A DNA stretch of 64,000 nucleotides from Heterodontus francisci (taxonomy: Eukaryota). Shown one piece after another: positions 3,166-62,342 of this stretch; within the stretch, counting starts at the first letter, position 1; each line of letters starts with the position of its first letter. The position numbers and the translations under genes were made by a program. The stretch lies in contig NC_090400.1 of assembly GCF_036365525.1 (NCBI RefSeq), positions 47,327,138-47,391,137 on the forward strand, read 5' to 3'. The notes under the pieces were generated by a model. That model was not told where the DNA came from. It did not search any database and saw only the letters and a program-made list of their open reading frames with translations.

Positions 3166-3594
3166 AGGCAAGGAATGAAGTGTGGCGGAGATGGATATAA
3201 AGGAGGGAGGGGGAAAGTGTGCTTATGAAGAGGCCTTGAATACATTGATCTATTTAAGTACAGTTCTAGTTGATCCTGAAATTAAAATATCATGCATTAG
3301 TGATGGCTAACAATTCAAAATTGAATAGCCAGCAAAAGAAATTGTGTACTGACAAGGAGCTACAAGTTTGTGTTCTTAACCGAAGGGGTCTGATGTCCCC
3401 CAGTGTATAGGTGTCCTGTTACTAAATTAGGAAGAGTGCCGACAAAACCCAAGAAGATAGTTTGTTTCAAATTTAAGGACTGAGGTAAATACAATCAGAA
3501 AAGAAAAATCGCCAGCTTGCTTGGCAGTGCTGCCTTGTAAAGGGGGCACTGGCAGACTGCTACTCTCATTTTTTAAAACAATCATATCGTTAAT

Positions 3595-6444: not shown

Positions 6445-6660
6445 ATGGTGGGCAGTCTGAACCTACAGGAGGTGACTGGTCCCCTGGTGGAGCCCAAGCG
6501 GCTGGGCGAGCGGGTACTGGATAGTCCCGACTCCGGGCTGCCCCCTAGCCCGAGTCCTACACCCAGTGTCTGGCTGCCGTCCCCGGGAGGCGCGGAGAAC
6601 CGGCTCCTGGAGCAGGAAGACACCGGCTTCCCACCTAGAGGAGGACACACTCCACAAACG
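6445..6660 (+). CDS. RFLNB: Refilin (RFLNB-like) coding exon 1
   Basis: ATG at 6445 gives MVGSLNLQEV...VLDSPDSGLPPSPSP, matching the refilin N-terminus (MVGRLSLQDV...VLDSPDSGLPPSPSP). 216 nt, phase-0 donor GTGGGT at 6661. B rather than A is inferred from adjacency to LIAT1, as at human 17p13.3. Confidence 0.92.
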
Positions 6661-9470: not shown

Positions 9471-10485
9471 TTGCACTATTTCTGCAATACTTTTATTATG
9501 CTTCCTCCTCGTATACAAAATAACATATTGGACAACACTTTGCACTCTACTGATAAACCAGGAACTGTGCCCGGACCATAAGTCGTATGTTGGGGTTTTC
9601 ATTGGGCAAGTGGCAGCTCCGAGTCTTTCTTTGGAAAAAAACTGATGAACTGAGTGTGCTTCCTGAGAGAAATTCCCAGTGCACTTCTGAAGTTGGACAA
9701 GAAAAAAAGAAATCCAAGCGGTATCTTTCAAAATTCAATGTAGGTTGTCAAACAGAAGATACTGTGGGTGGTCTACAGTATTTTATTGAGTTATCTCCAG
9801 GGCAAAGCAAATGGAAGAATGTCCTATCTGTTCAATTGCAAACAAAAGCTGTGACTCTCATCTGCAGTGGCTTGTTTATTTGGAGCTGAATATTGACTGT
9901 GGTAATGACCAAAATTTAAAATGACTGCCAGTACATTGCTCTTAAAATATAGCTTTATGACTAAGAGGGAGATTTGATCTCCACCTTTAGCCACATCCTC
10001 CCAGAGCTCGACCAATGCCCTCTTTGTCTAGCTGTTGGGAAGTATGAGTTTGGACATTTAGCAGTGGTTGACCTATTTGATTGAAACTGGTTGCAAATCT
10101 TTTGATGATGAGGCACTGTTTGTTCGCTCACTGAGAGGGGACTGACTGACTGTCCAGCACCTGATGATGTCCTCGTGATTGTAATCCAAGTGTTGGGTGT
10201 CATTTGGACACCACAAGTCACCAGCAGGATGTTGGGTTGCAGCCCAGTCTATTTTTAATTTAATTCTTTTTCCTTAGGGCTTTTCAAATAAACCGGTGCT
10301 CTCTGGCACTCATGTCATCCCATGTTGGTCCACTCGTGAAAATAAAAAGGTTGCATATGAGGAGGCAGAAGATCAAAAAGACAGATTCAGTGGCCTGTGA
10401 ATCAATAACAAAAGGGGAGAAGTCCTTTTACTGTCCCTTTGTGAAGACCCATCTACTTAATGTTCCTTACAAGCAATAGTTTAAA

Positions 10486-10790
10486 TTAGTTTTAGTTTAG
10501 AGATACAGCACTGAAACAGGCCCTTCGGCCCACCGATTCTGTGCCGACCATCAACCACCCATTTATACTAATTCTACAGTAATCCCATATTTCTACCACA
10601 TCCCCACCTGTCCCTATATTTCCCTACCACCTACCTATACTAGGGGCAATTTATAATGGCCAATTTACCTGCAAGTCTTTTGGCTTCACAGGGAGAACTT
10701 GCAAACTCCACACAGGCAGTACCCAGAATTGAACCCGGGTCGCTGGAGCTGTGAGGCTGCGGTGCTAACCACTGCGCCACTGTGCCACCC
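10486..10790 (-). mobile_element. HE1-type V-SINE (internally deleted)
   Basis: Reverse complement of the tRNA-like head GGGTGGCACAGTGGCGCAGTGGTTAGCACC and the HER1-like tail GGCCGAAGGGCCTGTTTCAGTGCTGTATCTCTAAA. Confidence 0.88.
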
Positions 10791-16989: not shown

Positions 16990-19202
16990 TGTTACTACTG
17001 AGGTAAGAGAAATACACTGTTAATTCAGTCCCACTTCTCCACGAGTCACAGCATAGCAATAAATTTTCCCCAGTTACCAAAACAGCCAATTAGATACACT
17101 CTTTGTCCCCAGAATAAAGCACACCAACCAGGTTTCTTAAATTGTTAATTTTGTTGTTGATTAATTATAAAACCAAGTCTTAACGAATAATGAAGTAAAT
17201 CTATATGCAAATTAAGATATTAAATCTCCTTATTTCCCTAGCCCTCATGCGCGCACACATGCACATACGTCCAAAAAGAAAAGGTTAACCAGGAGAAAAG
17301 GATTTTGGTTTAGTTATTTCATAGAAATGAAAGGAATAATAAAATAACTTGGTCTGTTATGATCTGGGAGAAAAGTTTTCAGTTTGGCGAGGTGCCCCAA
17401 AGTCAAATAGTCAGATGCCACTTGAAGTCTTTCTAGATGAGGTTGATGAAGAGTCTGTGATAGGAAGGCATTCAAGGAAATTCAAATGCAGCAGGCTTCA
17501 CATAAGTCTTTCATCAGGGGTGTAGCAACAGGCCATTTTGGGTCTTACAGCAGCAGTATAGCAGTAGAAGGTTTCTTAAAACACAGGAGGCAACAGGAAT
17601 CACACTTGAAGCAGGGATTCTTCAGAGACAGGAGGCAATAGGAATCTGCCACATTTTGAAATACTGGGTTTCTTCTCGAGATGCAGGTTTCTTTTACAGA
17701 GAGGTAATACTTTTCTGGTTGTTCTTCTAATCTCCAGGCAGGTCAGAATCAAATTTCAGAATGCCTGATTTTTGTCCAAACTCACCGGCTTTTTAAAGTT
17801 CCAAACTGAAACCACAACCTTCCTGAAACAGGTCATGTGTCCAGTCATAAAGTCTGTCTTGTCACTCGAAGTAGCTGAGAGGTCAAACCCCTTAGCTGGT
17901 TTCCTTGAAATTACCTGCTTTGCTGTCCTTTTTACAGGTTCAGCTCCTGTTGACTTTCAAAACATCCATCAAGTTCAGCTTTTGTAGGTGTCTCAATGTC
18001 CACTGAAAAATCCTTTTTCAGTTTATAAAAACACAATCTTAAGGATTTTGTTTTTAATTAAAACTTTTTTATTTCCAAAATATACTTTATTCATAAACTG
18101 TAAAAAATACATTACAAGACAGTTCCAAAAAGCCCAAAGTCAAATAATACAAAGAGTACAAAGGAGGTCAGTTTCCTTCAATACAGGAGTGAGTTGCCTC
18201 ACAACCCTTCCATATCATTTTACATGCTATGTACATTTTACAGCAAACAAATATTTTCTGGATATAGTTGAGGGGTTTCCCATGGATCCAGCTCCTCTGT
18301 TCACCTTGGTGGGGGGACCTTACACAATAGTCTTTCCCCATTGAGCCTTTGCCGCAGCTGCCCCAAGCTTTAGTGCGTCCCTCAGCACGTAGTCCTGGAC
18401 CTTGGAATGTGCCAGTCTGCAACATTCGGCGGTGGACAACTCTTTGCGCTGGAAGACCAGCAAGTTTCGGGGCAGACCAAAGGGCGTCTTTCACCGAATT
18501 GATAGTCCTCCAGCAGCAGTTGATGTTTGTCTCAGTGTGCGTCCCTGGGAACAGTCCGTAGAGCACAGACTCCTGTGTTACAGAGCTGCTTGGGATGAAC
18601 CTCAACAAAAACCACTGCATCTCTTTCCACACTGCTTTGCAAAGCCACATTCCAGAAAGAGGTAGGCAACCGTCTCTTCCCCACCACAGCCACCTTGAGG
18701 GCATTGTGCAGAGGGTGAGACACTCCAGATGTGCAGGAAGGATCTGACAGAGAGGGCTCTTCTCACCGCCAGCCAAGGTACATCTTGGTGCTTGTTTGAA
18801 AGTTCTGGTGATGAGGCATTCCGCCAAATGACTTTGGCAGTCTGCTCCGGGAACCATCCAACCAGACCCACCGTCTCCTTTTCCCGTAGGGCCTTGAGGA
18901 CATTCCGTGCAGACCACTGCCTGATGAATGGGTGGTCAAAGGTGTTTTTCCATAGAAACTTTTCCACGAAGGATAGGTGGTACGGCACGGTCCAGCTGGA
19001 AGGCGTGTTCAGTGGCAGTGACCAGACCCAGCCTTTGCAACACCGGGGACAGATAGAACCTCAGCATGTAGTGACACTTGGAGTTTGCGTACTGGGGCTC
19101 TACGCACAGCTTGGTGCAGCCGCACGCGAAGGTGGTCATCAGGATGAGGGTGACGTTGGGTACATTTTTCCCACCCTTATCAAGGGGTTTGAACTTGTAA
19201 CA
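16990..19202. mobile_element. Solo LTR (~1.07 kb net) with a nested Tx1-like LINE
   Basis: Starts TGTTAC (16990), ends GTAACA (19202), and has an exact 5-bp TSD CCTAT at 16985-16989 and 19203-19207. Confidence 0.75.
18048..19182 (-). mobile_element. Tx1/L1-clade LINE 3' fragment (zf-RVT region)
   Basis: Minus-strand ORFs give WLAVRRALSVRSFL...CPQGGCGGEETVAYLFLEC (C-x-C..ET..H-type knuckle). AATAAA and A-rich tail at about 18050-18090. Confidence 0.85.
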
Positions 19203-19949: not shown

Positions 19950-21052
19950 AGTGTTATTATTGCAGAAAATACGGAAGTATGGGGTTGAAGGTGATTTAGA
20001 GCTTTGGATCAGAAATTGGCTAGCTGAAAGAAGACAGAGGGTGGTGGTTGATGGCAAATGTTCATCCTGGAGTTTAGTTACTAGTGGTGTACCGCAAGGA
20101 TCTGTTTTGGGGCCACTGCTGTTTGTCATTTTTATAAATGACCTGGAAGAGGGTGTAGAAGGGTGGGTTAGTAAATTTGCAGATGACACTAAGGTTGGTG
20201 GAGTTGTGGATAGTGCTGAAGAATGTTGTAGGGTACAGAGGGACATAGATAGGCTGCAGAGCTGGGCTGAGAGATGGCAAATGGAGTTTAATGCGGAAAA
20301 GTGTGAGGTGATTCACTTTGGAAGGAGTAACAGGAATGCAGAGTATTGGGCTAATGGGAAGATTCTTGGTAGTGTAGATGAACAGAGAGATCTTGGTGTC
20401 CAGGTGCATAAATCCCTGAAAGTTGCCACCCAGGTTAATAGGGCTATTAAGAAGGCATATGGTGTGTTTGCTTTTATTAGTAGGGGGATCGAGTTTCGGA
20501 GCCACGAGGTCATGCTGCAGCTGTACAAAACTCTGGTGAGACCGCACCTGGAGTATTGCGTGCAGTTCTGGTTACCGCATTATAGGAAGGATGTGGAAGC
20601 TATGGAAAGGGTGCAGAGGAGATTTACCAGGATGTTGCCTGGTATGGAGGGAAGGTCTTACGAGGAAAGGCTGAGGGACTTGAGGTTGTTTTCGTTAGAG
20701 AGAAGGAGGAGGAGAGGTGACTTAATAGAGACATATAAGATAATCAGAGGGTTAGATAGGGTGGATAGTGAGAGTCTTTTTCCTTGGATGGTGATGGCAA
20801 ACACGAGGGGACATAGCTTTAAGTTGAGGGGTGATAGATATAGGACAGATGTCAGAGGTAGTTTCTTTACTCCGAGTAGTAAGGGCGTGGAACGCCCTGC
20901 CTGCAGCAGTAGTAGACTCGCCAACTTTAAGGGCATTTAAGTGGTCATTGGATAGACATATGGATGAAAATGGAATAGTGTCGGTCAGATTGTTTCACAG
21001 GTCGGCGCAACATCGAGGGCCGAAGGGCCTGTACTGCGCTGGAATATTCTTT
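19950..21052 (+). mobile_element. CR1/HER1-like LINE, young 5'-truncated copy
   Basis: 329-aa open RT (SGVPQGSVLGPLLFVIFINDL...KFADDTK). The 3' tail GGCCGAAGGGCCTGTA is shared with the HE1 SINE tail. Confidence 0.95.
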
Positions 21053-25110: not shown

Positions 25111-25459
25111 AAAGCCAGCAGCTCTCCCTGTCTCTACCCTCTTCCCACCCCCATTCACAACATTGGTTGCAAGAATATGGACTCCAGTACCCAATGCAAA
25201 TTCCATTCCAACTATATATCACTCTGAAGAACTTTCAGACATCAGACCTTTTTATAAAAAAAACAAAAATTCCTTTTACTGATTTGAATGTTTACTCCAT
25301 CGACGCCCCTCTTCCACCCCAACCCCCCCATCCCCAAACCCCTTTTCTTACTATTTAGGTTTACCTTGAAGTAGTGCTCTCACTTTACCTCTTTTCTCTC
25401 TAGTCTCTCCTATAAATGGGAGGTTTCCACTCTGCTACTTATTTCATGATTGAAGAGCC

Positions 25460-26946
25460 TGTTTTAAACTGTTTGGAAATGTAATTTTTACAGATTTTTA
25501 TGAATAAAGTATATTTTGGAAATTAAAAAAAAAAGCCCAACGCAGGTGTGGAAAGAGATGCAGTGGTTTTTGTTGAGGTTCATCCCAAGCAGCTCCGTAA
25601 CACAGGAGTCTGTGCTCTATGGGCTGTTCCCAGGGACGCACACTGAGACAAACATCAACTGCTGCTGTAGGACTATCAATTCAGTGAAAGACGCCCTTTG
25701 GTCTGCCCGAAACTTGCTGGTCTTCCAGCGCAAAGAGTTGTCCACCACCGAATGTTGCAGACTGGCACATTCCAAGGTCCAGGACTACGTGCTGAGGGAC
25801 GCACTAAAGCTTGGGCAGCTGTGGCAAAGGCTCAATGGGGAAAGACTATTGTGTAAGGTCCCCCCACCAAGGTGAACTGAGGGGCTGGATCCATGGGAAA
25901 CCCCTCGAACTATATCCAGAAAATATTTGTTTGCTGTAAAATGTACATAGCATGTAAAATGAAATGGAAGGGTTGTGAGGCAATTCACTCCTGTATTGAA
26001 GGAAACTGATCTCCTTTGCACTGTTTGTATTTTTTGACTTTGTGCTGTTTGGAACTGTTTTGTAATGTATTTAGTTTTTACAGACTTTTATGAATAAAGT
26101 ATATTTTGGAAATTTAAAAAAAAAATTGAAGAGCCCAAAGCAGATTGCTCCCCAAGCAGACTGTCAAACTCATTTCTGGCAATGAGGCATTCTGTCAACT
26201 GTCAAACAAGCACCAAGATGTAGCATGGCTGGCAGTGAGAAGGACACTCCCTACCAGATCCTTCCTGTACGCCTGCAGTCTCACCGCCTCTGCATGCTGT
26301 CCTCAAGGCAGCTGCAGTGGGGAGGAGATTGTTGTCCACCTCCTTCTGAAATGTGCCTTTGCAAAGCAGATCTGGAAAGAGATGCAGTGGTTTTTGTTGA
26401 GATTCATCCCGAGCAGCTCCGTAACACAGGAGTCTGTGCTTTACAGGCTGCTCCCAGGCACGCACACCAAGTTAAACATCAACTGCTGCTGGAGGACCAT
26501 CAACTCGGTGAAAGACGCACTTTGGTCTGCCTGAAATTTGCTGGTCTTCCAGTGCAGAGAGTTATCCACGACCGAGTGTTGCAGACTGACACATTCCAAG
26601 GTCCAGGACTACGTGCTGAGGGACGCACTAAAGCTTGGGACAGCCGCCGCAAAGGCTCAAACGGGGAAAGGCCACTGTGTAAGGTCCTCCCACCAAAGTG
26701 AACTGAGGAGCTGGAAACTGTGTAAAACCCATTGGGCTGTATACACCAGAGAATGTTTTTGATATGTAATGCAAATGTACGTTCCATATAAAATGGAATG
26801 GCAAGAATTGTGAAGCACCTCATGTTCTGTATCGAAAGAAACTGATCTTTATTGCACTCTCTGAAATCTCCAATTTGGATTGTCTGTGATGTATTTTTTT
26901 TACAAATTTTTATGAATAAAAAAATTATTTTTATAAATAAAAAAAA
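25460..26946 (+). mobile_element. Three tandem 5'-truncated Tx1/L1-clade LINE 3' ends (25460-25533, 25541-26125, 26140-26946)
   Basis: Each ends in TTTTATGAATAAA and an A-tail. The two longer ones encode WKEMQWFLLRFIP...KDALWSA...DALKLG, as does the copy at 18048-19182. Confidence 0.88.
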
Positions 26947-28204
26947 TTGAACAGCCCAAATATCTCCAGTCTCCCCTGCCAGAATTACAAGTCTTTACAC
27001 GTGCAGTATGTTGGAATATGATGGGGAACTGCAGTTGTGGGCACAAAGTTTCAGTTCCGGTTAGTTGTTCACTTTTTATTCAAAAGCTCTTGTGTAAAAC
27101 TTTTTTTTTCCCCAGTTCTTTTTTTCTCTTTCTCATGCTGGCATGTACTTTAATGGGCATTCTTTGTCTAGGTAGTCACTTTTCATGTTTACACCTGAAT
27201 AGTGTGTGGTGGCAGACTGCTGGAAGACATCACATGATCCCTATTAGGTCCTTACCTGATTGTACTCGTGTGTTCTGTTTTCCTCTAACCTGGGTCATTT
27301 AATGGGTTTCATTGGACAGGGATCAACAGTGGAAGCTTTGGCTGACTTTCCTGTTCCTTGGCTCAAAAGCTGATGTGATCAAACCCCATTCCATGTTTGA
27401 ATAGGGAGGAAAAAAAGCACCCTCACACTCCAATTGTTTGGAGGGTCCCCTGTAGAGCACATGCCACATAGCTGGCTTGACAGCTCTGCAGATAGATAAA
27501 TACCAGAGCTTAAGTAATTAAGGGGAATTCAAGGATAGCTGTTTTTTTTGTCTTTGAAAACTGCTTTCAAATTAAGATAATTGTGCATTGTCAGTGAGTG
27601 AATGCAAAGGGGATGGATGGAAAATTACATAGACTGGTAATTATCTAGCACATTATCTTCACAGCCAGAGGGTCCTTTAAAAGGTAACATGCCTTGTGTA
27701 ACCAATTACTGAGAATATAATAAATTAAAGCTTTTACAGCCTGTGAAAATTTGAATGGCTAAAAATGTGATTTTGCCACTAATTGCTCAGTCTCCTTCAA
27801 AACGAGGGAATGGCAGGCATGGGAAGTTGGATAAGGAAAGGCTTTTTGACAGATCAGTACAATCTACCTATTGTAGACTCGACACACTTGCTTAATTACC
27901 TAGCAGAGGGACCCCCAAGCCTTTGGAACTGTGGGACTGGATATGGGGTGGTGGTGGAGGGGTGCTGATTTGATCAATAGACACATGAGCCCCAGATATA
28001 GGAAACCAAAAGCTCCATAAATGTACATTGAGACCCCCTCCCATAAATGGGCAAAATACAAGACCATCCATACCCAGACAAAGCCCGACACCCCAAGCCC
28101 TCAGCCAACCATTTCTCTCGCTCCCCCTCCTTATTCCTCTAATGCTTAAACTTCAGTCTTAACCCGGTAAACCTTCTGGGATGGGAGACTGGTACAAAAG
28201 TCTG

Positions 28205-28610: not shown

Positions 28611-29371
28611 TCTTCCCCCCCCCCCCCCCCCACTTGGGGAGGAGCCTTTTTATCTCCCTCCAATCCTGGGAAATTTAAAATTACTTCAGGTGTGCTGCTC
28701 ATTCAGCAGAACGGAACCCAGCCCGGTACATTTACAGCACCGCGCTGTCTCTGGGTCTGCAGTCAGTGCAGACCTCGGCAACAGTTAATCGCAGAAAGGA
28801 TTCTATTGCCAAGATCAGCTGAGTCAGTACTGAAAATCTGCACACTCATCAGAATGAACAGTTATAAATTCCAGAATACCCAATATAAACAGGATGTTGG
28901 GATAACAAGCCTGGACTATCCTTAGTGAGATGCCAGTGTTAGTACTTGTACTGTTCATCTGGCACTGAGCCCCTCTTTCATATTAAGCTCACATGGGTCA
29001 ATTTTAACTCTCAATGAAACTAACCATCGTCGAAGTACATTTTATGTGCTTAATATCCAAAGAATTTGAAGGCAGATGAAACAAACTTATGGACCAGATT
29101 TGGCCCAGTTGGGCAGTCCCAGGCTAATGGTTCTGCAAAATTTATCTGCATCCCAAGATAGTTGAATAAAACCTCACCAACTCATTCTATGCTTGTCACT
29201 TTCCTAATCAAAGGTCATCAACCTGCAATTGTGTTTCTTTCCCCACAGCTACTGCTTGACCTGATTGTTTCCATCATTTTCTGTTCTAATTTCAATTTTG
29301 CAGTATTTTGTTGCTGTTTAACTTTTCACATGCTGTTTTTCACAGCAGCATTTGGTCACCTCTGTCCATTA

Positions 29372-29670
29372 GGGGCGGCGCAGTGGTTAGCACCGTGGCC
29401 TCACAGCTCCAGCGACCCGGGTTCAATTCTGGATACTGCCTGTGCGGAGTTTGCAAGTTCTCCCTGTGACCGCGTGGGTTTGCGCCGGGTGCTCCGGTTT
29501 CCTCCCACAGCCAAAGACTTGCAGGTGATAGGTAAATTGTCCCTAGTGTAGGTAGGTGGTAGGGAATATGGGATTGTTGCACGGTTAGTATAAATGGGTG
29601 GTTGTTGTTCGGCACAGACTCGGTGGGCCGAAGGGCCTGTTTCAGTGCTGTATCTCTAAATAAATAAATT
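29372..29670 (+). mobile_element. HE1-type V-SINE
   Basis: tRNA-like head, V domain CCGGGTGCTCCGGTTTCCTCCCACA, (TAAA)n tail. Confidence 0.9.
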
Positions 29671-30401
29671 TATCTCATTTTTGTCCTGAGATTTTGAACG
29701 GATCCATCTTTTACTGGGATTCTGTTCCATGTGTTAATCTCATTGGTACAGTAGAGTGGGATGTTATTAGCATTTAAAATGCAGTTGAATGGTTGAGCTG
29801 AGGGACTGCAGAGCTGAGCTTCAGTTGACTGGCCTTTACTCCTCTTTGGTTCTATTAATTCATTGTCCATTTAGAAGATTGGTCATGGCTGCAGCATGGG
29901 TTTAATCCCGCTGTGGTAGTTCATGAAGACCTGCCTCCTCGCCTTGCCCTATGCTTGCAGAATGGTGACCCTCAAGCTATACATCACCAACTGTCTTACT
30001 CTAATGGGGAGAGATGCCTATGGTCCTTTGGGACTACAGCTACAACATGTTGGTTGGTCATGCTGTTCCTCTTCCCTGATAAAGGGAAAATTCACAAGTT
30101 CCAAGTGCATTTATATTAGCACAGAAACAACTGGATAAAAGACTTTGCTTCTGCACGGATCATAAAGGCAACTCTTCCACTGTCTTACTCCACCATCCTT
30201 GTACTCCAAATCTTAAATCAAGGTTCAGTGAATTTGAGATTTGTTTTTTTTCCCCCAAACAATCCCTGATGCACGTTAATTAGTTGGACTGAAGCCAGCT
30301 CAGGACTACCTCTGGAGCTGAGAGTCCCAGGGCTGCATTGTCCACATTTGACTCTCAAAAGATTTCATTGTTCCCTGTGCTTTTTTCTTTCCCTGTTGCA
30401 G

Positions 30402-31477: not shown

Positions 31478-31816
31478 TGCGGCGCAGTGGTTAGCACCGC
31501 AGCCTCACAGCTCCAGTGACCCGGGTTCAATTCTGGGTACTGCCTGTGTGGAGTTTGCAAGTTCTCCCTGTGTTTGTGTGGGTTTCCTCCGGGTGCTCCG
31601 GTTTCCTCCCACATGCCAAAGACTTGCAGGTTGATAGGTAAATTGGCTATTATAAATTGCCCCTAGTATAGGTAGGTGGTAGGGGAATATAGGGACAGGT
31701 GGGGATGTGGTAGGAATATGGGATTAGTGTAGGATTAGTATAAATGGGTGGTTGATGGTCGGCGCAGACTCGGTGGGCTGAAGGGCCTGTTTCAGTGCTG
31801 TATCTCTAAAACTAAA
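31478..31816 (+). mobile_element. HE1-type V-SINE
   Basis: Same head, V domain and tail as 29372-29670. Confidence 0.9.
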
Positions 31817-32095
31817 TGGATTTTTATCCGTTTTTTTTCTCTCTGCTAAATTTAGCTAGACTTGCCATTCGTGGGTCACTGCTTTGAAACTTTACCCGCA
31901 TTGAAAGGTCCTTGGACAACATTGTGTCAGAAATGGGTTGTGCCTTTGGTTGAGCAGTGGTGAGTTCCCAGGCAGGATCAACCTAGCCAATTCCTCTAGG
32001 CCATGGTCCAGTGTGAGACTCTGTTTCAGCAAATTGCCTCGTAAAGGAAATATGAGCGTTTTTGAATAAAAAGCCCCTTGTGTGTTTGCTCCCAG

Positions 32096-39461: not shown

Positions 39462-39947
<486 letters not shown>

Positions 39948-41244
39948 TTATAAAGAGGCTGTATATTTGAAGAGTTTAGTAATTTTTTTTAGGCACGTTA
40001 GTAGAAGTAGGTTCCAGCAACTCCTACTACTGTGATAAGGAAGCACTGATGTGTGTCCCCTGTTGGTTTTCAGGTGAAGTCATTATTATTAAAAGAATGA
40101 GGATTTTATTGTAATATTACTGTCCTACTGTTCTATATCTTGATAAAGTAAACAAGCAACCTACTCGAGGTGTTTGCTCATGCCACACTGAATTATTTGA
40201 AATAGTGTTCAAGAATGGCGGTTCCACCTCCCTTACGGGCAGCTGATCATGTTCCCAGGTTGCTCTACTTAAAAATTATAAATTTACTGCCATGGGGAAA
40301 TTGTGGAGGTGACTGATATCGTAACATTTTACAGTGCAAGGCAAGAATTCATAACATACTAGAACAGCTAACCTGTACAAAATATAAAATGTAACTAAGA
40401 TTGGGAGTAAGTTCGTTAAAATTCAGTCTTACTGTTCAGCTGCCATTTACAAAACACTTTCAGCTTGTGCTGCCACATGAACCCTGTGATTCTGTAAATG
40501 TCTTGCATAATTCTCTGGTATCTATTTATTCCGTAGCATATTAAGAGGGCAACACAGCTTTTACAATGGGATTAGGCAATACTATTCCAGGCATCAGGAC
40601 TCTTAGTCTGCTCTGTTACAGTTTGTAATCACAAGATGCCATCTACTGGAATTCATATAAACTGCAATAGAATAATCCACATCATAGCCAGCACATACAG
40701 CCATTAACCAAAATAATTTGGCTGAATTCCCATTACAATAATACCTGCCATGTACGTGATGCTGCTTTCATTATTTAGTAACATGGAGCAATTAAAATTT
40801 GATTAAAGAGTTTGCACTGATCCAGAATGGATCTGAGTTCTACAGGGGTTTAGGGAGCTTTCTACTGCATAGTGCCAACTCTAATACAAAATAGTAAATA
40901 GGAATCTTGTTAAAACAAATACAAATAAAAGTTTATATATATTTGCTACTGTTATCCTATTTCTCTGTGGAAAGCTATACACTGCTCAGGGAAGGTAAAT
41001 CATCTTTAAAAGAGCAAACTTGGAGCTGTCTGGACTTTGTTTTAATTATTCTTTTGCCCTACATCTTAAAGAAAGATGCACAGAAATAAGTGGGGTTTAC
41101 AGTTCATTAGTTTGCCACATGAAATACAGTTCAAATAGATTTATTGCTGCAATACCAGCAAAAGTGGCTCAAACTTTGCTATGGGGTTGACCGCAGTCAA
41201 AAAACATACCAAGCAATTGCTAAATACCACACCTCTGTAGTTAC

Positions 41245-42320
41245 AAAAAAATCTGAAGGCTTTGGAGAAGGTACAGAAGAGGTTTACTCGATTGGATGAG
41301 GGATAATAGCTTTGTGCATAGACTGGAGAAGCTTGGGTTGTTCTCTTTAGAGTAGAGACGTGTGAAGTGATGCATTTTGGCAGAAAGGAAAGGGTGAGGC
41401 CATATAGACTTAATGGCACAGCTCCAAAGAGTGTGCAGGAACAAAGGGAGCTGGGGGTGCATGTGCATGATTTTTGAAGGTGGGAGGACATATTCAGAGA
41501 GTGGTTAGCAAAGCATATGGAATCTTGGGCTTCATAAATAGAGGCATAGGGTACAAAAGCAGGGAAGTTATGCTGAACCTTTCAAAAGCTCTTGTTAGGT
41601 CCCAATTAAAATATTGCATCCAGTTCTGATCCCCACACTTTAGGAAAGATGTGAGGGTCCTTGAGAGGGTGCAGAGGAGATTTACCAGAATACTTCTGGT
41701 GAAGGGGGATTTTAGTTACAAGGTTAGGTTGCAAAAGCTGGTGCAGTTCTCCCTGGAACAAAGGAGATTTGATAAAGGTGTACAAGATTATCAGACTTGG
41801 ATAAGGAAAAACTGTTCCCATTAACTGATGGTACAAGGACTTGGGGACATAGATTGAAAGCTTTCGGCCAGAGATGCAGGGGGAATGTGAGGAAGAACTT
41901 TTTTACACAGCGAGTGGTAAATGACTCTGACTCTAGAAGAAGTGAAGATTTGATGAAGATGTTTATAGTTGTGAAGGGTTTAGATAGAGTAAAAAAAGAG
42001 AAACTGTTTCCAATGACTGAAGGGATAATAACCAGAGGGCACAGATTTAAGGTGATTGGTAAAAGAACATAGGCGACATATGGAAAAGCTTTTTTACACA
42101 ATGAGTGGTTAGGATTTGGAATGCACTGCCTGATAGGGTGATGGAAACACATTCAATAGCCTTCAAAAGGAAATTGGATAAATTCTTGATGAAGACAAAA
42201 ATTACAGGAACATGGGGAAAGAACAGGAGTGGGTTTAATTGGATTGCTCTTTGAAAGAATGGACGCAGACTCGATGACCCAGAAGACCACCTTCTGTGCA
42301 ATACTATTCTATGACTCTCT
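41245..42320 (+). mobile_element. Degraded, nested CR1 LINE fragments
   Basis: Repeated LERVQRRFTR, KEKLFP and GHRFKV motifs; ATTCTATGACTCT tail. Confidence 0.8.
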
Positions 42321-42392
42321 GATTCAGAGCTTCCACCAGTGGAAGAGTACAGCTGTGTCTATTGAAGCTTCTATTTAAGCTGTTCTAACTTA

Positions 42393-42660
42393 GGGTGGCA
42401 CAGTGGCGCAGTGGTTAGCACCGCAGCCTCATTGCTCCAGCGACCCGGGTTTGATTCTGGGTGCCGGGTGCTCCGGTTTCCTCCCACAGCCAAAGACTTG
42501 CAGGTTGATAGATAAATTGGCCATTGCAAATTGCCCCTAGTATAGCTAGGTGGTAGGGGAAGGTGGGGATGAATGTAGGATTAGTGTAAATGGCACAGAC
42601 TTGGTGGGCCAAAGAGCCTGTTTCAGTGCTGTATCTCTAAATAAAAAATAAAATAAAACT
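42393..42660 (+). mobile_element. HE1-type V-SINE (internal deletions)
   Basis: GGGTGGCACAGTGGCGCAGTGGTTAGCACC head and CTGTATCTCTAAATAAA tail. Confidence 0.88.
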
Positions 42661-43276
42661 AGGGTAAAAGGAAGTAGAGGAAAAATCCACATTGACGAGA
42701 TAAAAGCAAAATTGGAAACAAAAACAAATACCTGGAAGCACATAACAGGATCTGTTGGTGCCTGATAGGATGGGAGATGGCTTTTCATTTTGGGTGAGTG
42801 CAAGCCCTTCATCAGAACATAGTGCTGATGTGTACAGAGGCTGCACCTTCCCTGATGACTGATTTATAACAGTTTAGGGCTGGGAGACCTACTGCTCTTT
42901 TTTAAATTTGAAACCTTTTCCAGATTTTCCATCTCTCCAATTTTCTCTCCTTTTCTTTAGGCTTCCCAAAACTTAGCCATTCACCTGTTCTTTATGCCTT
43001 TAATTTTGTTACGGCTTTTTGATCTGTTATATCATCCAACTGATCATTCCACTAGCATTTCCTCCCTGAATTTGTCCTTCTTTTCCCCCATTTTCCCTCC
43101 CTTCACCCCCTTTCGGATGCTAATAATATACTTCTATATTTCTCAAAAAGTGTATGAATCCAAAATGCTAACTTAAAATAAAAGCAAAATACTGCAGATG
43201 CTGGAAATCGGAAATAAAAACAAGAAATGCTGGAAATACTCAGCAGGTCTGGCAGCATCTCTGGAGAGAGAAGCAG

Positions 43277-43313
43277 AGTTAACGTTTCAGGTCAGTGACC
43301 CTTCTTCAGAACT
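43277..43313 (-). ncRNA. Minimal type I hammerhead ribozyme motif (Penelope-associated)
   Basis: The - strand reads AGTT-CTGAAGA-AGGGTCACTGACCT-GAAACGTT-AACT: stem I AGTT/AACT, core CUGANGA, stem II GGUC/GACC, GAAA, palindromic stem III ACGU, GUU cleavage triplet. Confidence 0.75.
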
Positions 43314-43784
43314 GACAAATATTAGAAATGTAAAAGGTTTTAAGCAAGTAAAGTGGGGGTTGGGCAAAAGATAACAAACAAGAAGGTGTTGATAGGACAA
43401 GGTCACAGAGAGTAACTGACCAGGTCATGGAACAAACACACACGGTATGTTAATGGTGTGCTGGTGTATTGAACATTGAGTTCAATAATTTCAGAGCATG
43501 ACAAGCCCCACTTTTTTTTTATTTTTTATTTTAGTTTGTTTCTAGTGTGCCTACCCACTGTTTTTTTCATGTTTGTGCTTGGCTGTTCATTTTACTGTCA
43601 ATTGACACCCTCTCTGTATTAATGCTTTGTCTTTCACCACACCATTAACATACCGTTTGCCTTTGTTCCATGACCTTCTGGTCAGTTATTCTCTGTGACC
43701 TTGTCCTATCAACACCTCTTTTGTTATCTCTTGCCACATCCCCGCTTTACTTGCTTAAAACCTTTTACATTTCTAATATTTGTC

Positions 43785-43821
43785 AGTTCTGATGAAGGAT
43801 CACTGACCTGAAACGTTAACT
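43785..43821 (+). ncRNA. Minimal type I hammerhead ribozyme motif (Penelope-associated)
   Basis: AGTT-CTGATGA-AGGATCACTGACCT-GAAACGTT-AACT. Core intact, one change in stem II. Confidence 0.7.
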
Positions 43822-44025
43822 CTGCTTCTCTCTCTACAGATGCTGCCAAAATGCTAACTGCTTGGTCTCACCACTGTTGCTAACAGAGCAGTCTTTTGTT
43901 TTTGTTGCAGCTTTCTGTGGGTGTCCGTATACCTTGTAGTACCGTAAAACCACTACACGTTTTTGAGCATCTTTCACAAATTTTGATGTTAATAATCCAG
44001 ATACAAAATTTTAACTTTGCCCTAC

Positions 44026-44203
44026 CTGAAACAGTCTCCTCTACAGTCGATGGCGTGCTTGAAGAATTTCTTCTTAACTTACAGGATTTCTTCTTCTCCT
44101 TATTGCTCTTTTTCTTAATTTTCTTCTTTTCTGCTGTCTCAACAGTCAGATTTGTGGTTGATTTTGCCTTATGTTTGATGTCTCGTATTTCATTCTCCAT
44201 CAT
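44026..44203 (-). CDS. LIAT1: LIAT1 (ligand of ATE1, C17orf97) coding exon 1, lysine-rich
   Basis: ATG at 44203 directly after an in-frame TAA. MMENEIRD...EKKKIKKKSNKEKKKS...TVS. 178 nt, phase-1 donor GTAGG starting at 44025 on the - strand. Confidence 0.8.
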
Positions 44204-45870: not shown

Positions 45871-46038
45871 TCAGAGCAGATGAGTTCTGTGTCCTGACCA
45901 ACATTTTTTCCAAAACTTCTTATCAAAAGCAGACTAACTTTCCAGTTTTTCCAGCATTTTCTAATTTTTATTTTAACTTGTTTATCTGATATACTGTTTG
46001 TGGGATTTTATTTTGTCCAAATTGGCTGCCATATTTAC

Positions 46039-46807
46039 CTTCTTTTCTTTTGGGCCTCCTTATCTCGAGAGACAATGGATACGCGCCTGGAGGTGGTCAG
46101 TGGTTTGTGAAGCAGCGCCTGGAGTGGCTATAAAGGCCAATTCTGGAGTAACAGGCTCTTCCACAGGTGCTGCACAGTAACTACAGCAGCAGCCAATTTG
46201 CGCACAGCAAGGTCCCAGAAACAGCAGTGTCTCAATACATTCCATCTTCGCTGCCTCCAGAGAATGCTTGGCATCAGGTGGCAGGACCATATCTCCAACA
46301 CACAAGTCCTCGAGGCGGCCAACATCCCCAGCATATACACCCTACTGAGCCAGCGGTGCTTGAGATGGCTTGGCCATGCGAGCCACATGGAAGATGGCAG
46401 GATCCCCAAGGACACATTGTACAGCTGGTATCAGACCCACTGGCCGTCCATGTCTCCACTTTAAAGACGTCTGCAAACGTGACATGAAGTCCTGTGACAT
46501 TGATCACAAGTCGTGGGAGTCAGTTGCCAGTGATCTCCAGAGCTGGCGGACAGCCATAAGGGCGGGGCTAAAGTGTGGCGAGTCGAAGAGACTTAGCGGT
46601 TGGCAGGAAAAAAGACAGAAGCGTAAGGGGAGAGCCAACTGTGTAACAGCCCCAAAAAACAATTTTATCTGCAGCACCTGTGGAAGAGTCTGTCACTCTA
46701 GAATTGGCCTTTATAGCCACTCCAGGCGCTGCTTCACAAACCACTGACTGACCACCTCCAGGCACTTACCCATTGTTTCTCGAGACAAGGAGGCCAAAGA
46801 AGAAGAG
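46039..46807 (+). mobile_element. RTE-clade LINE 3' fragment with an inverted copy of its own 3' end
   Basis: LNTFHLRCLQRMLGIRWQDHISN...LRWLGH...MEDGRIPK and C-terminal CSTCGRVCHSRIGLYSH. 46039-46174 is the reverse complement of 46670-46805. Confidence 0.9.
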
Positions 46808-49280: not shown

Positions 49281-49409
49281 GAGAGGTCACTGACCTGAAA
49301 GGTTAACTCTTCTTTTTTCTCCACAGATGCTGCCAGACCTGATGAGTATTTCCAGCATTTTTTGTTTTTATTTCAGATTTCCAGCATCAGCAGTATTTTG
49401 CTTTTACTT
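49281..49409 (+). mobile_element. Short Penelope terminal-repeat insertion with 9-bp TSD
   Basis: TSD TGTCCTTAT at 49272-49280 and 49410-49418. Starts inside the hammerhead motif (GAGAGGTCACTGACCTGAAA). Confidence 0.8.
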
Positions 49410-49727: not shown

Positions 49728-50229
49728 GTAATTTTAAGTATTAATACTATTTGATATATTGTGGCTAATCCTTGCAGTACATTGTAACAACAAAGTCTTG
49801 ACTTGGAGCTATGGGTTAGATTGCACCTCTGTGGTTTATATGGCTGAATGCATCATGCATTTACCAGTAGAGCTGTTCCAGCATTTTTTAAAGCATTCTT
49901 GATGATGGTGTCTCCACCCAAGCACTAACCCTGACAATTACGGCACTTGTGAAATCCTCTAATACTTTGGGGTGAAATGACTATTTTGGAGAAAAACAGA
50001 AGGAAACCTATTTTTCTTCAGGTATAACAATCCACTAATTAAAATCCATTTCCAGTAATTGCATGCTTCAAAACCGTCTACCCTGGTTTTGATAGAGGGT
50101 GGGTAATTACAGATATTTCCTGTTTTGCCATTAAAAGGAGGAATTGATACTGAGGTGTTCTTTTCGATTACAGATGCAGAACAAAGTTAAGCAAAGTAGA
50201 TTTGGCAAAAAATCTTTTTTTTTCCCCAG

Positions 50230-50495
50230 TGGAAACGAGCAATCCTCCAATCAGCCATCCGGGTCGGAGCATGAAAGTGACCCGCTGTCTGAGGGCAGCA
50301 GCACCAAAAGGAGAAAGCGGGATGGAAGGATCCCACTGGAGCGGTTTGGTAGAAAGCACCTGAGCGTCACTGACCTGAGTCGACAGGCTTGGTGTGAGCA
50401 GCAGGTGGTTTATGGGATGGAACTGCCACACATTCAACAACTCCGAGAAGAAGTTCCAGTTGTGAAAGCTGGTAGCTCTATACACCTGGCAAGAG
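50230..50495 (+). CDS. EXO5: EXO5 coding exon 3
   Basis: Poly-T plus CCCCAG acceptor. PLERFGRKHLSVTDLSRQAWCEQQVVYG...AGSSIHLAR includes the first Fe-S cysteine (WCE). Donor G|GTAAC at 50496. Confidence 0.93.
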
Positions 50496-50604
50496 GTAAC
50501 TTATTAGACTTGAATGAAATGTTGCTTGTGGCCCAGCATCACGTGAAATAGCCACATACCACATGGAGCTAAGATGCAGATCAGTGCCATCGATTCCACA
50601 CTCT

Positions 50605-50995: not shown

Positions 50996-52145
50996 AGTGC
51001 TTTTTGGATCTTAGTCCCTTTGGGAAACCAGTAAGCAGGAATAAAAGTGCTTCTCACTGAGAGGAAAAAAAAACTAAGGGCAAGTATGATTGATGCACAC
51101 CTCCTAAAAACCAGCTTGAGCACCCCATGGTCACGTTGTCTGTAATTTTCCTTCTCTGCCCCGCCAGACAAGGGTTGGCTGGTGTCACTGGGATAATCAA
51201 TAGGGGTGTAAAATAGCTTTAAAAATTGAGATGGGGAAGCAAAATAAAATGTTCCTTTATTTCCTAGTAATTAAAATGTTGGCTGTCACTAGCATGATTA
51301 CTTATTTTTAAAATCTAGCTCCACAAATATGCTCTCCACGTTTGCAAGTGTCACTTTTAATTTCCATTTCTACATTTAAAAGATTTGCTGCTTTGTGATC
51401 AACAAAGATTTGTTAATCTTCTAAGCTTGTATCAATCAATGTTACCAAGTACAAAGGGTCTTGAATCGTTGACCAAATCGCCTCACTGAACCCACAGTAA
51501 AGACAAGAATATTGTGACCAGACTCCCAAATGATAGTTGGAGTGATCTGCTTTCTTGCTCTCCCAGTGATTTCCATAGGTACACAGCTCATACCTGTACG
51601 CTATCATTTTCAGTGGTTTTGTTTTTCTCTCCTCTCTGCTTTTCTTCTGAAGGCACTAACATGCTAAAGGTACAGTACCTCAACCATGACCATGGATTGT
51701 TTCCAAGCCTGGATAGATAGTATTGGCTTGTTACTTGGTTGTGAGATGCATCACAGCCAAGTTCAATCCTGTCCACATGTGCGCATTTTCCAATAGGGAC
51801 ACCAAATAGCAATTAGGTGTGGGAACACTGGCTCATGTTCCTTTCTTGCTCTGCCTGTTTTACCTATGATAATGTAGCTCTGAATAGTAGAGGAATCAAA
51901 AGCTGGATCTTCCGCATCTGAATGAGTCACTACTTACTCACTTACTTTATTGTATTTTAATTGATGCCTTGGAAGACACAAAGCTGCTGTTAAGGGAACA
52001 ACTGTTTTATTGAAACCGTACTCCCGACAATAGCTTTAAGATTTAATGCTACTTCATTGCTGAATGAAATGGGCTAGAATTGAAATCCTGCATTTAAACT
52101 AGAACCTTTTCAAACTCCTAGTGACAGGCTTAAAGTCTCCCTTGG

Positions 52146-52483
52146 TTTTATTTATTTATTTAGAGATACAGCACTGAAACAGGCCCTTTGGCCCACCGAG
52201 TCTGTGCCGACCAACAACCACCCATTTATACTCATCCTACATTAATCCCATATTCCCTACCACCTCCTCACCATTCTCCTACCACCTACCTACACTAGGG
52301 GAAATTTACAATGGCCAATTTACCTATCAACCTGCAAGTCTTTGGCTGTGGGAGGAAACCGGAGAACCCGGCGGAAACCCATGCGGTCACGGGGAGAACT
52401 TGCAAACTCCGCACAGGCAGTGCCCAGAACTGAACCCGGGTCGCTGGAGCTGTGAGGCTGTGGTGCTAACCACTGTGCCGCCC
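52146..52483 (-). mobile_element. HE1-type V-SINE
   Basis: Reverse complement of the 29372-29670 family. Confidence 0.9.
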
Positions 52484-54332: not shown

Positions 54333-55318
54333 TAGTGGTTCTGAAACTCCAGCATCCGCAGTATTTTGCTTTTATTTTAGTGTTTAATTCACTGCCACTT
54401 CTCTTCCAGGAATGCCTACCTTGAAGAAGTTCTGCTCTTCTCTCCGACGGGATTTTCGTTTGTCTCTTTTACCTTGTTCACCTTCATTGCTTTCTATTTC
54501 CCTCCTGGTGTTTGATAAGGTATCTACCAAAACTCGTTTTCACAGCCACATCTCCTTCCTCAGTGACTGTCTCCGGCTCCAACTGATTCCACGTGGATTC
54601 CAACTGCAGTTTCACCCATCATGCTTTGAAACCACCCAGGATCACAGGTATCTCCGAGAAATACAACGTTCCTCGGACTGCTACTCTCGCCGCATCCTGA
54701 GATCCACACTCAGTGCTATGCGCCGCCATATGCACACACTGGACCTCTCTCTCCAGCAGCACCGTCTCACCTTATCTCAAATCTGTTCTACTCCGCAATG
54801 CTGCCAGACCTGCTGAGTGAATCCAGCATTTCTTGTTTTTGGTTCTGAAACTTTTTTGGTTGAAGGACCACTTTTCAAATGCATTAATAATCTAAATTAT
54901 AACACTATATAATACTCGTTATACAAGCTGTGCTTGCACAGTGTTTTAATTATGCTTTTAAGAAAATAGATATTTACTTACAGATATCAGCGAGTTTGGT
55001 GTGGCTACTTAAATATTTAAAAAACTCCGCTCTCATGAACAAGGATTAATTCATCCGATGTCCACCACCAGCTTTAGTATCTCTTGGTTTACCTGGCAAA
55101 CTTCATGCTGCTCTTAGCGCTCCTCCATGTGTGCTCGCTAGCTTGTAGGCGAGACAACCGACCCACTCTGCACAGCACGTGGCCTCCATACACTGATCCT
55201 CTTACCTGCCTCGCACTAAGCCCACCTCCAGCAGCCACTCATTTGCTTACTTCCAGATTACTTTGGAAGTTTCTTTGGACCCCCGGGGGATCCGTGGACC
55301 TCAGTATGAGAGCCACTT
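54333..55318. mobile_element. Old hAT (Charlie-like) MITE with the Penelope fragment inserted in its left TIR
   Basis: TAGTGGTTCTGAAACT...AGTATGAGAGCCACTT resembles CAGTGGTTCTCAAACT TIRs. Flanks TGTTCGGC/TGTTGGCT look like a degraded TSD. Confidence 0.5.
54349..54839 (+). mobile_element. Penelope-like fragment carrying the ORF N-terminus, 13-bp TSD
   Basis: TSD TGGTTCTGAAACT at 54336-54348 and 54840-54852. ORF 54412-54816 includes HISFLSDCLRLQLIPRGF; both ends are pieces of the Penelope terminal repeat. Confidence 0.8.
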
Positions 55319-56509
55319 TGTTGGCTCAATCTTGGGTGACTCCCAACTCCCTCACTTTGAAAGTGTCTTCACTTATCTAAATAAATGTTCAGTAATATTT
55401 TCAAGCTAACAAACAGAACAAACTCTGTTAATTGTTTAAACATTAGAAAATATCTTATTGCCTCCGCAAGATGATTTTTGAAAAGCAACAGACCCTCACC
55501 TCAGACCTCATTTTAGGTTTCTTAATAGTTTAATTAATAAATTCTCTTAACAGGCCATTGTCTAATAATATTTATACAGTAGAAATTTTATTATTTAAAT
55601 CCTTGCAAGGAAAACAGCAAAAAGAAACACTCTATACCTTATGGTATTCTTCTGTAGATAACTTTTATGTACATGGTTCTTTTCTTTCTTGTAATCTCTA
55701 CCTGCAAGAGCTTATTAGTCTATTGGTTGTAGATTCCATTCAGTTTAATAAAACAGTACTCAGGATTTACAGGGTTTGATATCCATCGATTGGTTGCTAG
55801 AACTTGTTTGGATTTAAATGACGTGACATTTGGATTCAAAAATAATTGGCTATTACACACATAACTGAACCATTTACACTCTGCAATTATTTGAAATATG
55901 TAGCTTGGTTTTTCTCTAAGCCTATAACCATGGAAATTAATTGTAAAAGCTCATAATATTTCTGTCATTTGCTGGCTTTCAAACATTTAAGTATTGTTAC
56001 TGAATTCGACAGCTACCTGATTCAAGTATATACTGCTTCATTTTTTTCGTCACACTGATCAATATTCCTCTCTCAACCAATTTCTCAATGTTTGTGGAGC
56101 ACTATTGCTGCAGAAGGGCTGCAGCATTTCCCTGCCTAACAGTTCCTGTACTCTTTAAAAAAATAATGTCCTTTGAGATGTTACAATGACATAACCCAGT
56201 ATTTAAATGGAAGTATTTATTTTTTGATGCTGTTGTGTTCTGTCTAAATCACATTTCCAGCGAAATGACAAAACATCTTGGGACATGATCTTGCTACAGT
56301 CCAGTTGGGAAGAAGTAATGGGTTGCTGTTATGTCACTTTGCTTCTCATGCTCTATAGTCCTTGCACAATCTATTCCGCAAAACCAGGGAACCAATGATG
56401 AGCTCTAGTGTGTGAAATGAATAGCAAACAGATGTTGGAGTGATGATATTATTTGTTACACAGATTGGATCATTATCATCTAGTAAAATGCAGTCTCTTT
56501 TATTACCAG

Positions 56510-56977
56510 GTTAGTGTATACAAACTTCTCTTTGAGGCCATGATGAAAGGCCAACTGAACAAGGACACCATCACTCACCATCTTCACTTACGGACAGAGC
56601 ATCCCTTTGGGTCAGAGGTTATGGTATATGCTCAGAACATGGGATTTACCATAAACACATTTGGCGACTTACTGGATTTAATGTTGTTAAACCTGACGTA
56701 TTCAGAGATCCCCAATGTCGACACCATGAAGATAGAATACTGTTACCAAGCAGATGCCTCTGTAATTGGAACAGAAGTGGTGTGCTTTGAGGAGGAGTGG
56801 ATTAAAAGTGAGCTGAAGCATTATTGCTCCTTCTGGAAGGGCCAGAGGGAGGCCAAGGGTGTGGATATTGAAGAGGCGTGGAAATGTCGGTCTTGTGACT
56901 TTGGAGACATTTGTGAGTGGAGAAAGAGTAAAGCTGAAGAAGCAGCACAAAATAACCGAGCAAATCAAAGCAAATGA
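56510..56977 (+). CDS. EXO5: EXO5 coding exon 6 (last), C-terminal Fe-S cysteines
   Basis: TTATTACCAG acceptor. VSVYKLLFEAM...GVDIEEAWKCRSCDFGDICEWR (CxxCxxxxxC). TGA ends at 56977. Confidence 0.95.
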   Translation, partial: VSVYKLLFEAMMKGQLNKDTITHHLHLRTEHPFGSEVMVYAQNMGFTINTFGDLLDLMLLNLTYSEIPNVDTMKIEYCYQADASVIGTEVVCFEEEWIKSELKHYCSFWKGQREAKGVDIEEAWKCRSCDFGDICEWRKSKAEEAAQNNRANQSK

Positions 56978-61029: not shown

Positions 61030-61560
61030 GATCAGTTTGGCTCAGAGCTAGTGTACTATCCCCTCCATAGCACAAGGTTGTGACAGCAGATTGCAGTGCT
61101 GAGGGAGTGCCGCACTATTGCAAGTACTGTGCTTTCCATGAGAAGTGAAACTTTAAACCCCTTTAGTGATGTTAAAGAGTCCATGGTGAAGCTTAACGAG
61201 ATGCAGTGAGTTCTCCCTCATGTCCTAGCAAACATTTATCTCTTAACCAACATCACCACAAGGTCACAGACCTGAAGCGTTAACTCTGCTTCTCTCTCCA
61301 CAGATGCTACCAGACCCACTGAGTATTTCCATCACTTTCTGTTTTTATTTCAGATTTCCAGCAGCCGCAGTATTTTGCATTTATTTTACCAAAGAAATAT
61401 TATTTGGTCATTCACCTCATTGCTGTTTGTGAGCTGTGTTCAAAATGGCTGCAACACTTGCCTACATAAGATCAATGACATTGTTTCAAAGTAATTCATT
61501 GCATATGAGGCAAAGTGGGGTATTTCTCTGAGAGATATGAACAGGTGCTATATAAAGGAT
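61030..61560 (+). mobile_element. DeuSINE-like SINE with a nested short Penelope terminal-repeat fragment (about 61261-61388)
   Basis: GCAGTGCTGAGGGAGTGCCGCACT core, interrupted by AGGTCACAGACCTGAAGCGTTAAC...GTATTTTGCATTTATTTT. Confidence 0.7.
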
Positions 61561-62014: not shown

Positions 62015-62342
62015 ATAAAAGCAAAATACTGTGGATGCTGGAAGTCTGAAATAAAAACAGAAAGTGCTGGAAATACTCAGCAGGTCTGGCAGAATCTGTG
62101 GATAGAGAAACAGAGTTAACATTTCAGGTCAGTGACCTTTCATCAGAACTGACAAAGCTTAGAAATGTAATAGACTTTGAGCAAGTGAAAGGTGGGAGGG
62201 GGGGGGGGGGGGGGGTGGGGGGGAGGGAAGAACAAAAGGGAAGGTTTGTGATAGGCAGGAGGGCAAGAGAGATTAAATGACAAAGATGTCATGGAATAAA
62301 AGGCAAAGGGAGTAGTAGTTGTAGTAAAAGGCAAAGCATATT
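62015..62342 (-). mobile_element. Penelope terminal-repeat insertion with 17-bp TSD, inside a CR1 tail fragment
   Basis: TSD ATTATAGCTGA(C/T)CTGTA at 61998-62014 and 62343-62359. Contains the hammerhead motif at 62114-62150. Confidence 0.85.
62114..62150 (-). ncRNA. Minimal hammerhead ribozyme motif, CpG-decayed in stem III
   Basis: The - strand reads AGTT-CTGATGA-AAGGTCACTGACCT-GAAATGTT-AACT. Confidence 0.6.

Follow-up and report, generated by a model that had tools for sequence, protein, structure and literature searches.

The hammerhead motifs that recur in the 64-kb window (the whole 64,000-nt stretch of DNA analysed here, from a horn-shark-type genome) very probably lie in the truncated pLTRs of a shark Penelope-like element (PLE). 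The same reading makes the pair of motifs in an intron of LIAT1 the inverted arms of an insertion whose sense copy is likely inert, and would have the motif act, in intact tandem elements, as a ribozyme that is likely to be slow and to depend on a partner copy or a protein. By descriptor and by position the motif is a PLE minimal hammerhead, and a known PLE feature, of the kind described in 2014, is thus extended to a shark family.

The best copy (43277-43313, minus strand) is sense to the LIAT1 pre-mRNA. It has a stem I of 4 bp, a CUGANGA box at 43309-43303 with an extra nucleotide at 43302, a stem II of 5 bp closed by a G.U pair, GAAA at 43288-43285 and a palindromic stem III, and its predicted cut lies between 43281 and 43280. 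A second motif (43785-43821, plus strand, antisense to LIAT1) was also taken to be intact by the first-pass annotation; its core is indeed intact, but a single G-to-A substitution weakens stem II, leaving either 2 bp and a mismatch or a 3-bp or bulged stem. The motif at 62114-62150 on the minus strand lies in a solo pLTR insertion (62015-62342, with a 17-bp target duplication carrying one mismatch), and a CG to TG change in its stem III has abolished the palindrome. The 3' UTR/pLTR of a PLE ORF relic (4576-4990, plus strand) holds a deleted motif at 4858-4890, in which 6 nt are missing over the cleavage site and stem II and loop II are altered. Two short plus-strand insertions are truncated within the motif itself: that at 49281-49409 begins inside the CUGANGA box, with a 9-bp target duplication directly before the truncation point, and that at 61261-61388 begins at stem II and so carries no CUGANGA box, its target duplication being uncertain.

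All these positions, and the CpG decay, deletion and truncations attributed to them beforehand, were borne out. The estimate of about six copies in 64 kb was right as to the six listed but overlooked a seventh, strongly decayed copy (about 29193-29310, plus strand; 73.8% over 107 nt, E 5e-12) and an insertion of the family that lacks the motif (54349-54839, plus strand, 13-bp target duplication). The window total is seven motif remnants from six insertions, plus the motif-less insertion; for the 4858, 29193 and 61261 copies no target duplication can be claimed, the signal being too weak. The palindromic 15.2-16.2 pairing is kept at 43277, 43785 and 61261 and lost at 62114, 49281, 4858 and 29193, and only 43277-43313 combines an intact core and both stems with the stem III palindrome.

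Recovery of the motif is well above background. A pattern search gave four matches at up to 3 mismatches, against none in 100 shuffles. The RNAmotif descriptor from the supplement of Cervera and De la Pena (2014), which asks for a stem I of 3-7 bp, CUGANGA, a stem II of 3-7 bp with a loop of 3-10 and then GAAANNUH, matched three cores, at 43309(-), 43789(+) and 62146(-), whereas 200 dinucleotide shuffles averaged 0.005 matches per window and never exceeded one. The best parses of 43309 and 62146 give a first box of 8 nt, while 43789 parses only without the extra nucleotide and is missed by a stricter descriptor (stem II of at least 4 bp). Neither a stricter nor a one-mismatch scan found further hammerhead families in the window. 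The weak self-matches seen at 42709-42727 and 45944-45983 were discounted as low-complexity sequence. Outside the window, no copies were found in viral contigs, and all 15 metagenome loci proved to be chance matches to a 21-nt pattern, with flanking similarity ending at about 30 nt and the motif absent.

The carrier is an endonuclease-positive PLE. The 4858 copy is immediately preceded by a 5'-truncated, frameshifted ORF relic (3590-4575, plus strand; Pfam and tblastn) comprising the C-terminal part of the RT and a GIY-YIG endonuclease (Pfam E 2.9e-05, above the cutoff). The RT part has 14 homologues, aligned in order along the relic, which is colinear with proteins P0023, P0024 and P0075 and, by tblastn, is also matched by P0018. 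P0075 (924 aa, RT and GIY-YIG) aligns both to this relic and to an ORF start at 54412. That start belongs to the insertion at 54349-54839, which has the layout of a permuted PLE: the family 3' end is followed after 32 nt by the ORF start (ATG 54412, 128 open codons) and then by a pLTR piece that begins 22 nt past the cut site and stops at the inner tail boundary. An exhaustive homologue search with the ORF start gave 100 matches including P0075; none was found among longer proteins, in Atlas or in Pfam. The distance from the ORF stop to the start of stem I is 283 nt in the 4858 relic and 284 nt near the second motif, where the stop lies at 43499-43501. The motif therefore stands where a pLTR is placed, behind the RT/GIY-YIG relics at one end and, through the family end, before the ORF start at the other. 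The proposal of a minimal type I hammerhead with a loopless palindromic stem III, carried on Penelope-like repeats, is upheld by these relics and ORF ends.

The element resembles known endonuclease-positive PLEs of the Neptune/Nematis type in several respects. As in the available texts of Craig et al. (2021, PMC8557442) and Arkhipova et al. (2013, PMC3846280), the RT precedes the GIY-YIG domain, a pLTR is present, and units may comprise an adjacent inverted, 5'-truncated copy placed head to head, a tail of 30-40 bp at one end and a target duplication. The CX2-5CxxC linker that the available part of PMC8557442 gives for Neptune and Nematis is found in P0023, P0024 and P0075 (the truncated P0128 being left out) and is decayed in the window relic; a Neptune/Nematis affinity would be tentative. 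As far as those texts go there are also differences: target duplications are 9-17 bp in the window and 8-10 bp in rotifer PLEs, and the pLTR ends 32 nt before the ATG rather than inside the ORF.

The motif itself passes the descriptor for PLE minimal hammerheads and shares with them the extra nucleotide after A9, the lack of a loop III and the palindromic 15.2-16.2 (Cervera and De la Pena 2014, PMC4209133). By our own count, its stem III and cleavage letters equal those of 13 of the 56 rows published there, none of which comes from a cartilaginous fish. The setting is alike as well, since the available text of that paper describes mostly solitary, truncated copies and opposite-strand motif pairs 100-700 bp apart, comparable to the pair a few hundred bases apart in the window. 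The motif departs from that consensus at pair 10.1-11.1, which is A-U in five of seven window rows, G.U in the other two and nowhere the usual G-C; by our count, published helix II starts with A in 3/56 rows. However, G10.1-C11.1 is typical rather than required: the descriptor does not ask for it, several published members lack it, and rows with A-U or G.U have been published (PMC4209133). A further difference is that stem II of the window motif is a near-perfect palindrome with a 3-nt loop, unlike the motifs in PMC4209133.

The window copies are not a tandem retrozyme. Like the non-LTR retrozymes in the available text of Li et al. (bioRxiv 10.64898/2026.07.22.740005), the pLTR pieces are PLE-derived, non-coding and bear a type I hammerhead, and tandem retrozymes are reported there in one chondrichthyan genome. 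However, retrozymes are arranged in tandem, every unit bearing a motif, whereas the window holds dispersed single or inverted copies, some attached to pieces of ORF; it contains no same-strand tandem copies, the closest same-strand motifs being 5.5 kb apart.

The motifs at 43277 and 43785, first listed as separate copies, are the inverted arms of one head-to-head PLE insertion at 43174-43848. Its outer boundaries are set by a 14-bp target-site duplication, at 43160-43173 and 43846-43859 on the plus strand, whose two copies are 100% identical. Arm A (43174-43463, minus strand) is an inverted, 5'-truncated pLTR piece with a full 3' end and a tail of about 38 nt (about 43174-43214). Arm B (43464-43848, plus strand) contains the last 11 or so codons of the PLE ORF (43466-43498), the stop, the 3' UTR and the motif, and ends 28 nt past stem I, overlapping the target duplication by 3 nt. 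The inverted partners, 43250-43463 and 43635-43848, are 214 bp long and 90.8% identical; their alignment shows 14 substitutions over 211 columns, plus 6 gap columns. If identical at insertion, the arms have each drifted by about 3%, which would make the insertion old. As they lie on opposite strands of a single insertion, the two motifs cannot form a tandem dimer.

Several other repeats share the window. A repeat of about 300 nt, SINE-like by its size, is present in five copies (10479-10790, 29373-29682, 31479-31834, 42393-42657 and 52145-52483), one of them in the LIAT1 intron, and is very abundant in RNA contigs. Retroelement relics at 18065-18858 and 25459-26960, 7 kb apart, form an inverted pair that is partly duplicated (94.5% over 586 nt), and a short inverted retroelement pair is found at 46042-46174 with 46670-46807. 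An RT-like frame of 329 codons lies at 19951-20937.

The Infernal check proposed in the first-pass annotation (Hammerhead_1) would fail, since Rfam hammerhead families match nothing: a scan of the whole window and of 43230-43360, at E up to 10, gave weak unrelated matches only. Isolated 37-mers showed no folding excess over shuffles (z 0.02, 1.05 and -1.02), and the probability of the hammerhead fold in the isolated 37-mer was 0.39 for the 43277 copy and, depending on the parse, 0.0004-0.018 for the 43785 copy. None of the nine pairs was altered on both sides in eight window rows, all of them close, decayed relatives, and the paired fraction over these aligned rows, 82.5%, equals the shuffle mean. 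The power of this covariation test is low, because the rows are close and decayed and two of them supply flanking letters to stem I. Nor does the peak of conservation fall on the motif. Identity with the 62114 copy is 34/37 in the motif, 36/40 just downstream and 50/88 in the far upstream UTR, and with the 4858 copy 27/31, 37/40 and 45/90, respectively; motif and downstream sequence both exceed the far upstream UTR. Covariation thus lends the ribozyme reading no support; what carries it is the set of core boxes, the match to the descriptor and the location within the element.

For the best copy, the double hammerhead is a nested fold of -8.5 kcal/mol, whereas a duplex through the near-palindromic stem II reaches -20.8 kcal/mol. 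We infer a slow ribozyme, dependent on a partner or a protein, whose importance, if any, would be confined to live tandem elements. Stem II is a perfect DNA palindrome with a one-base spacer at 49284-49296 and 62126-62138, an arrangement that we take to resemble a nuclear-receptor IR1 response element.

The motif family is abundant in shark RNA assemblies. Four of the ten listed runs were used, and runs with small shares were left aside. Each run had between 4,356 and 13,306 RNA contigs on a 5.1-kb stretch, counting all its repeats together, and in run X1 the summed depth, which is not a copy number, was about 983,000 over 43162-43332 against 67 on LIAT1 exons. Among the loose ends listed for RNA contigs, family ends cluster at 43174-43178 and at 43214, some 38 nt apart, and the predicted cut lies upstream of them by about 105 and 66 nt, respectively. 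Every one of the seven motif-bearing copies reaches upstream of the cut site and none begins at the cut, which implies uncut RNA templates. The 5' ends of three copies (49281, 61261 and 29193) fall within or just before the motif, suggesting that the RT often stops at the structure or that the template begins there. An opposite-strand joint, 43258/43305, appears in all four runs among the joints listed for RNA contigs, and suggests a recurrent small fold-back form elsewhere in shark genomes.

The anole Poseidon element PAc offers a functional parallel. In the available text of Frangieh et al. (2024, PMC11167929), its motif is cleaved only with the element's protein, uncut RNA is the main template, and no RNA-seq reads are reported to begin or end at the motif's site. 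PAc likewise has two RT start sites that define a tail downstream of the motif and uses uncut templates. As far as that text goes, the two differ in that the PAc motif overlaps the start codon, whereas the shark cut would lie about 140 nt upstream, and in that protein-assisted cleavage is demonstrated for PAc while for the shark motif cleavage is a prediction.

A working of the shark element can be proposed along these lines. In a live tandem element, the cut about 140 nt before the ATG could free a unit-length RNA, with the motif of the intact tandem acting as a slow ribozyme that would need a second copy or a protein. Reverse transcription would likely begin downstream of the cut, at a distance of about 66 or 105 nt, and proceed through the uncut motif. 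Every insertion, however short, would then take the motif along, so that a motif close to the RT start and carried by short insertions could reach high copy number without selection on the copies. Once inserted, the copies would decay through CpG loss, deletions and mismatches. The copies in the window are dead-on-arrival retrocopies. The description of a high-copy self-cleaving RNA family is thus apt as regards abundance in RNA assemblies, but that these copies make up a ribozyme family in its own right is not supported.

An alternative in which the cut site of the shark PLE overlaps a spliceosomal acceptor, so that cleavage and leader splicing compete and the dispersed copies serve as portable acceptors, is unlikely, with a few hints in its favour. 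By the usual splice consensus, a signal resembling a branch point and acceptor lies at 43259-43282 on the minus strand: a branch-point-like A (43279) stands two bases past the cut, and beyond it 15 of 16 nt are pyrimidines, followed by AG (43260-43259). Between the motif and the ORF start, three further pyrimidine tracts end in AG (including 43208-43230 on the minus strand and 54360-54411 on the plus strand), and a private change at 43261 adds a second AG to the 43277 copy. Among the loose ends listed, one at 43259 occurs in six X10 contigs and others at 43208 in X2 and X3. The opposite-strand joint at 43258, found in all four runs, has a matching join in the window at 54797/54798. However, these joints are drawn from the rows listed and have no DNA control; truncation or template switching explain them as well, and they could equally be DNA junctions. 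According to the available text of PMC4209133, an intron of Drosophila virilis Penelope ends at the 5' side of helix I, so a link between motif and intron has a precedent, in a different geometry.

Less probable still is that the pool of transcribed copies dimerises in trans and cuts itself at measurable rates, shaping the shark transcriptome. The thousands of contigs per run and the great summed depth in X1 (again, not a copy number) speak for it, and the dimer fold of the best copy is nested with a negative energy, but the competing stem II duplex is favoured by about 12 kcal/mol and just one of the seven window copies has kept core, stems and palindrome. Published experience points the same way: metazoan minimal hammerheads do not cleave as monomers and show low cleavage as dimers in the available text of PMC4209133, and the anole motif, as PMC11167929 describes it in its available part, needs protein for cleavage and has no RNA-seq read ends at its site. 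Contigs, for their part, cannot reveal RNA ends. Dispersed retrocopies of a PLE whose motif likely works, slowly and with help, in intact tandems remain the preferred account of the family.

The LIAT1 locus invites the further idea that its sense copy has been domesticated as an intronic ribozyme, cutting the pre-mRNA and so tuning LIAT1 output, to which we give very little credence. The coding exons lie on the minus strand at 44026-44203 (the first) and 39465-39904, flanking an intron (39905-44025) that ends in GT and AG. The name is taken from protein matches, Pfam giving no LIAT1 name: exon 39465-39904 is 100% identical to a Heterodontus francisci protein named LIAT1, and 13 of the 14 other exon matches are to shark, ray or unnamed proteins (58-84%). 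The 43277 motif lies inside this minus-strand intron, as had been noted, so it is sense to the pre-mRNA; the insertion begins 177 nt and the motif lies 712-748 nt from the donor, with all core positions and both stems kept. Conserved intronic hammerheads such as that of RECK are known in amniotes, and the available part of PMC6155905 describes them, like the shark copy, as type I motifs in an intron, sense to the host gene. In that text, however, RECK-type hammerheads are canonical, self-sufficient and conserved across species, whereas the shark copy has no stem III as a monomer, belongs to a recognisable insertion in decay and is predicted to be masked.

The masking follows from the fold-back. 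Its minus strand is predicted to fold at -392.7 kcal/mol (z -29.7, 20 shuffles) into one long hairpin of about 214 bp, and in the intron context the 37 nt of the 43277 motif pair with the antisense arm at a mean probability of 0.97, while that of stem II is about 1e-19. The masking persists when the modelled transcript ends at the motif, and the plus strand behaves alike, with a value of 0.94; these are equilibrium folds that ignore ADAR editing and RNA-binding proteins. Even by itself, arm A has a stem I probability of 0.014. A stem III partner is also lacking: there is no same-strand partner motif within the known LIAT1 transcript, and the only other minus-strand copy lies 18.8 kb upstream and has lost its palindrome. 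The antisense arm comes first in transcription and is predicted to base-pair with the sense copy, and the sole partner is distant and decayed; cleavage of the LIAT1 pre-mRNA is therefore unlikely. Within its 37 nt this copy departs at two positions from the letters commoner in the family, in keeping with neutral decay.

Spliced LIAT1 RNA is present, although partial cleavage is compatible with it. In the RNA contigs of three of the four runs a single record per run bridges 39904 and 44026 (in X1 with no differences), and X10 has no such bridge; since X2 and X3 come from the same sample, taken from a related organism, these joints show removal of the intron in two studies, in runs marked as guessed RNA. 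The sense copy is thus likely to be sealed in a hairpin and inert, as the modelled folds indicate, and a role for it in LIAT1 is not supported. In run X1 the LIAT1 contig measures 6,090 nt, of which 4,874 nt lie beyond 39400, so the LIAT1 3' UTR would be long. The neighbouring genes include Refilin/FAM101 and Exo5 coding segments recognised by Pfam at 6448-6750(+), 50135-50548 and 56447-56974(+), with Exo5 arranged head to head with LIAT1.

Finally, it is hardly credible that the motif is a chance or DNA-level feature, such as a nuclear-receptor-like inverted repeat: the missing Rfam match, folding excess and covariation in eight window rows and the perfect stem II palindrome of two copies (49284 and 62126) would suit it, but a palindrome leaves unexplained both catalytic boxes at the right distances, the extra nucleotide after A9, stem I, the palindromic stem III and a location in the pLTR of a PLE, which is the rule for such motifs.

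A search of Creative Commons and bioRxiv texts did not find this shark PLE hammerhead family in print, and the role of PLE hammerheads is described as still open in the available texts of PMC11167929 and PMC8557442. Should the cut site indeed overlap a splice acceptor, the motif would gain a testable function. If the IR1-like stem II palindromes are bound, the family would scatter such sites genome-wide. At LIAT1, the fold-back should by prediction give about 200 bp of double-stranded RNA beside the donor, a likely editing substrate. For ribozyme scans the locus carries a caution, that an intact-looking intronic ribozyme should be read together with its inverted partner. As a very abundant vertebrate family, these elements provide convenient material for mapping RNA ends.
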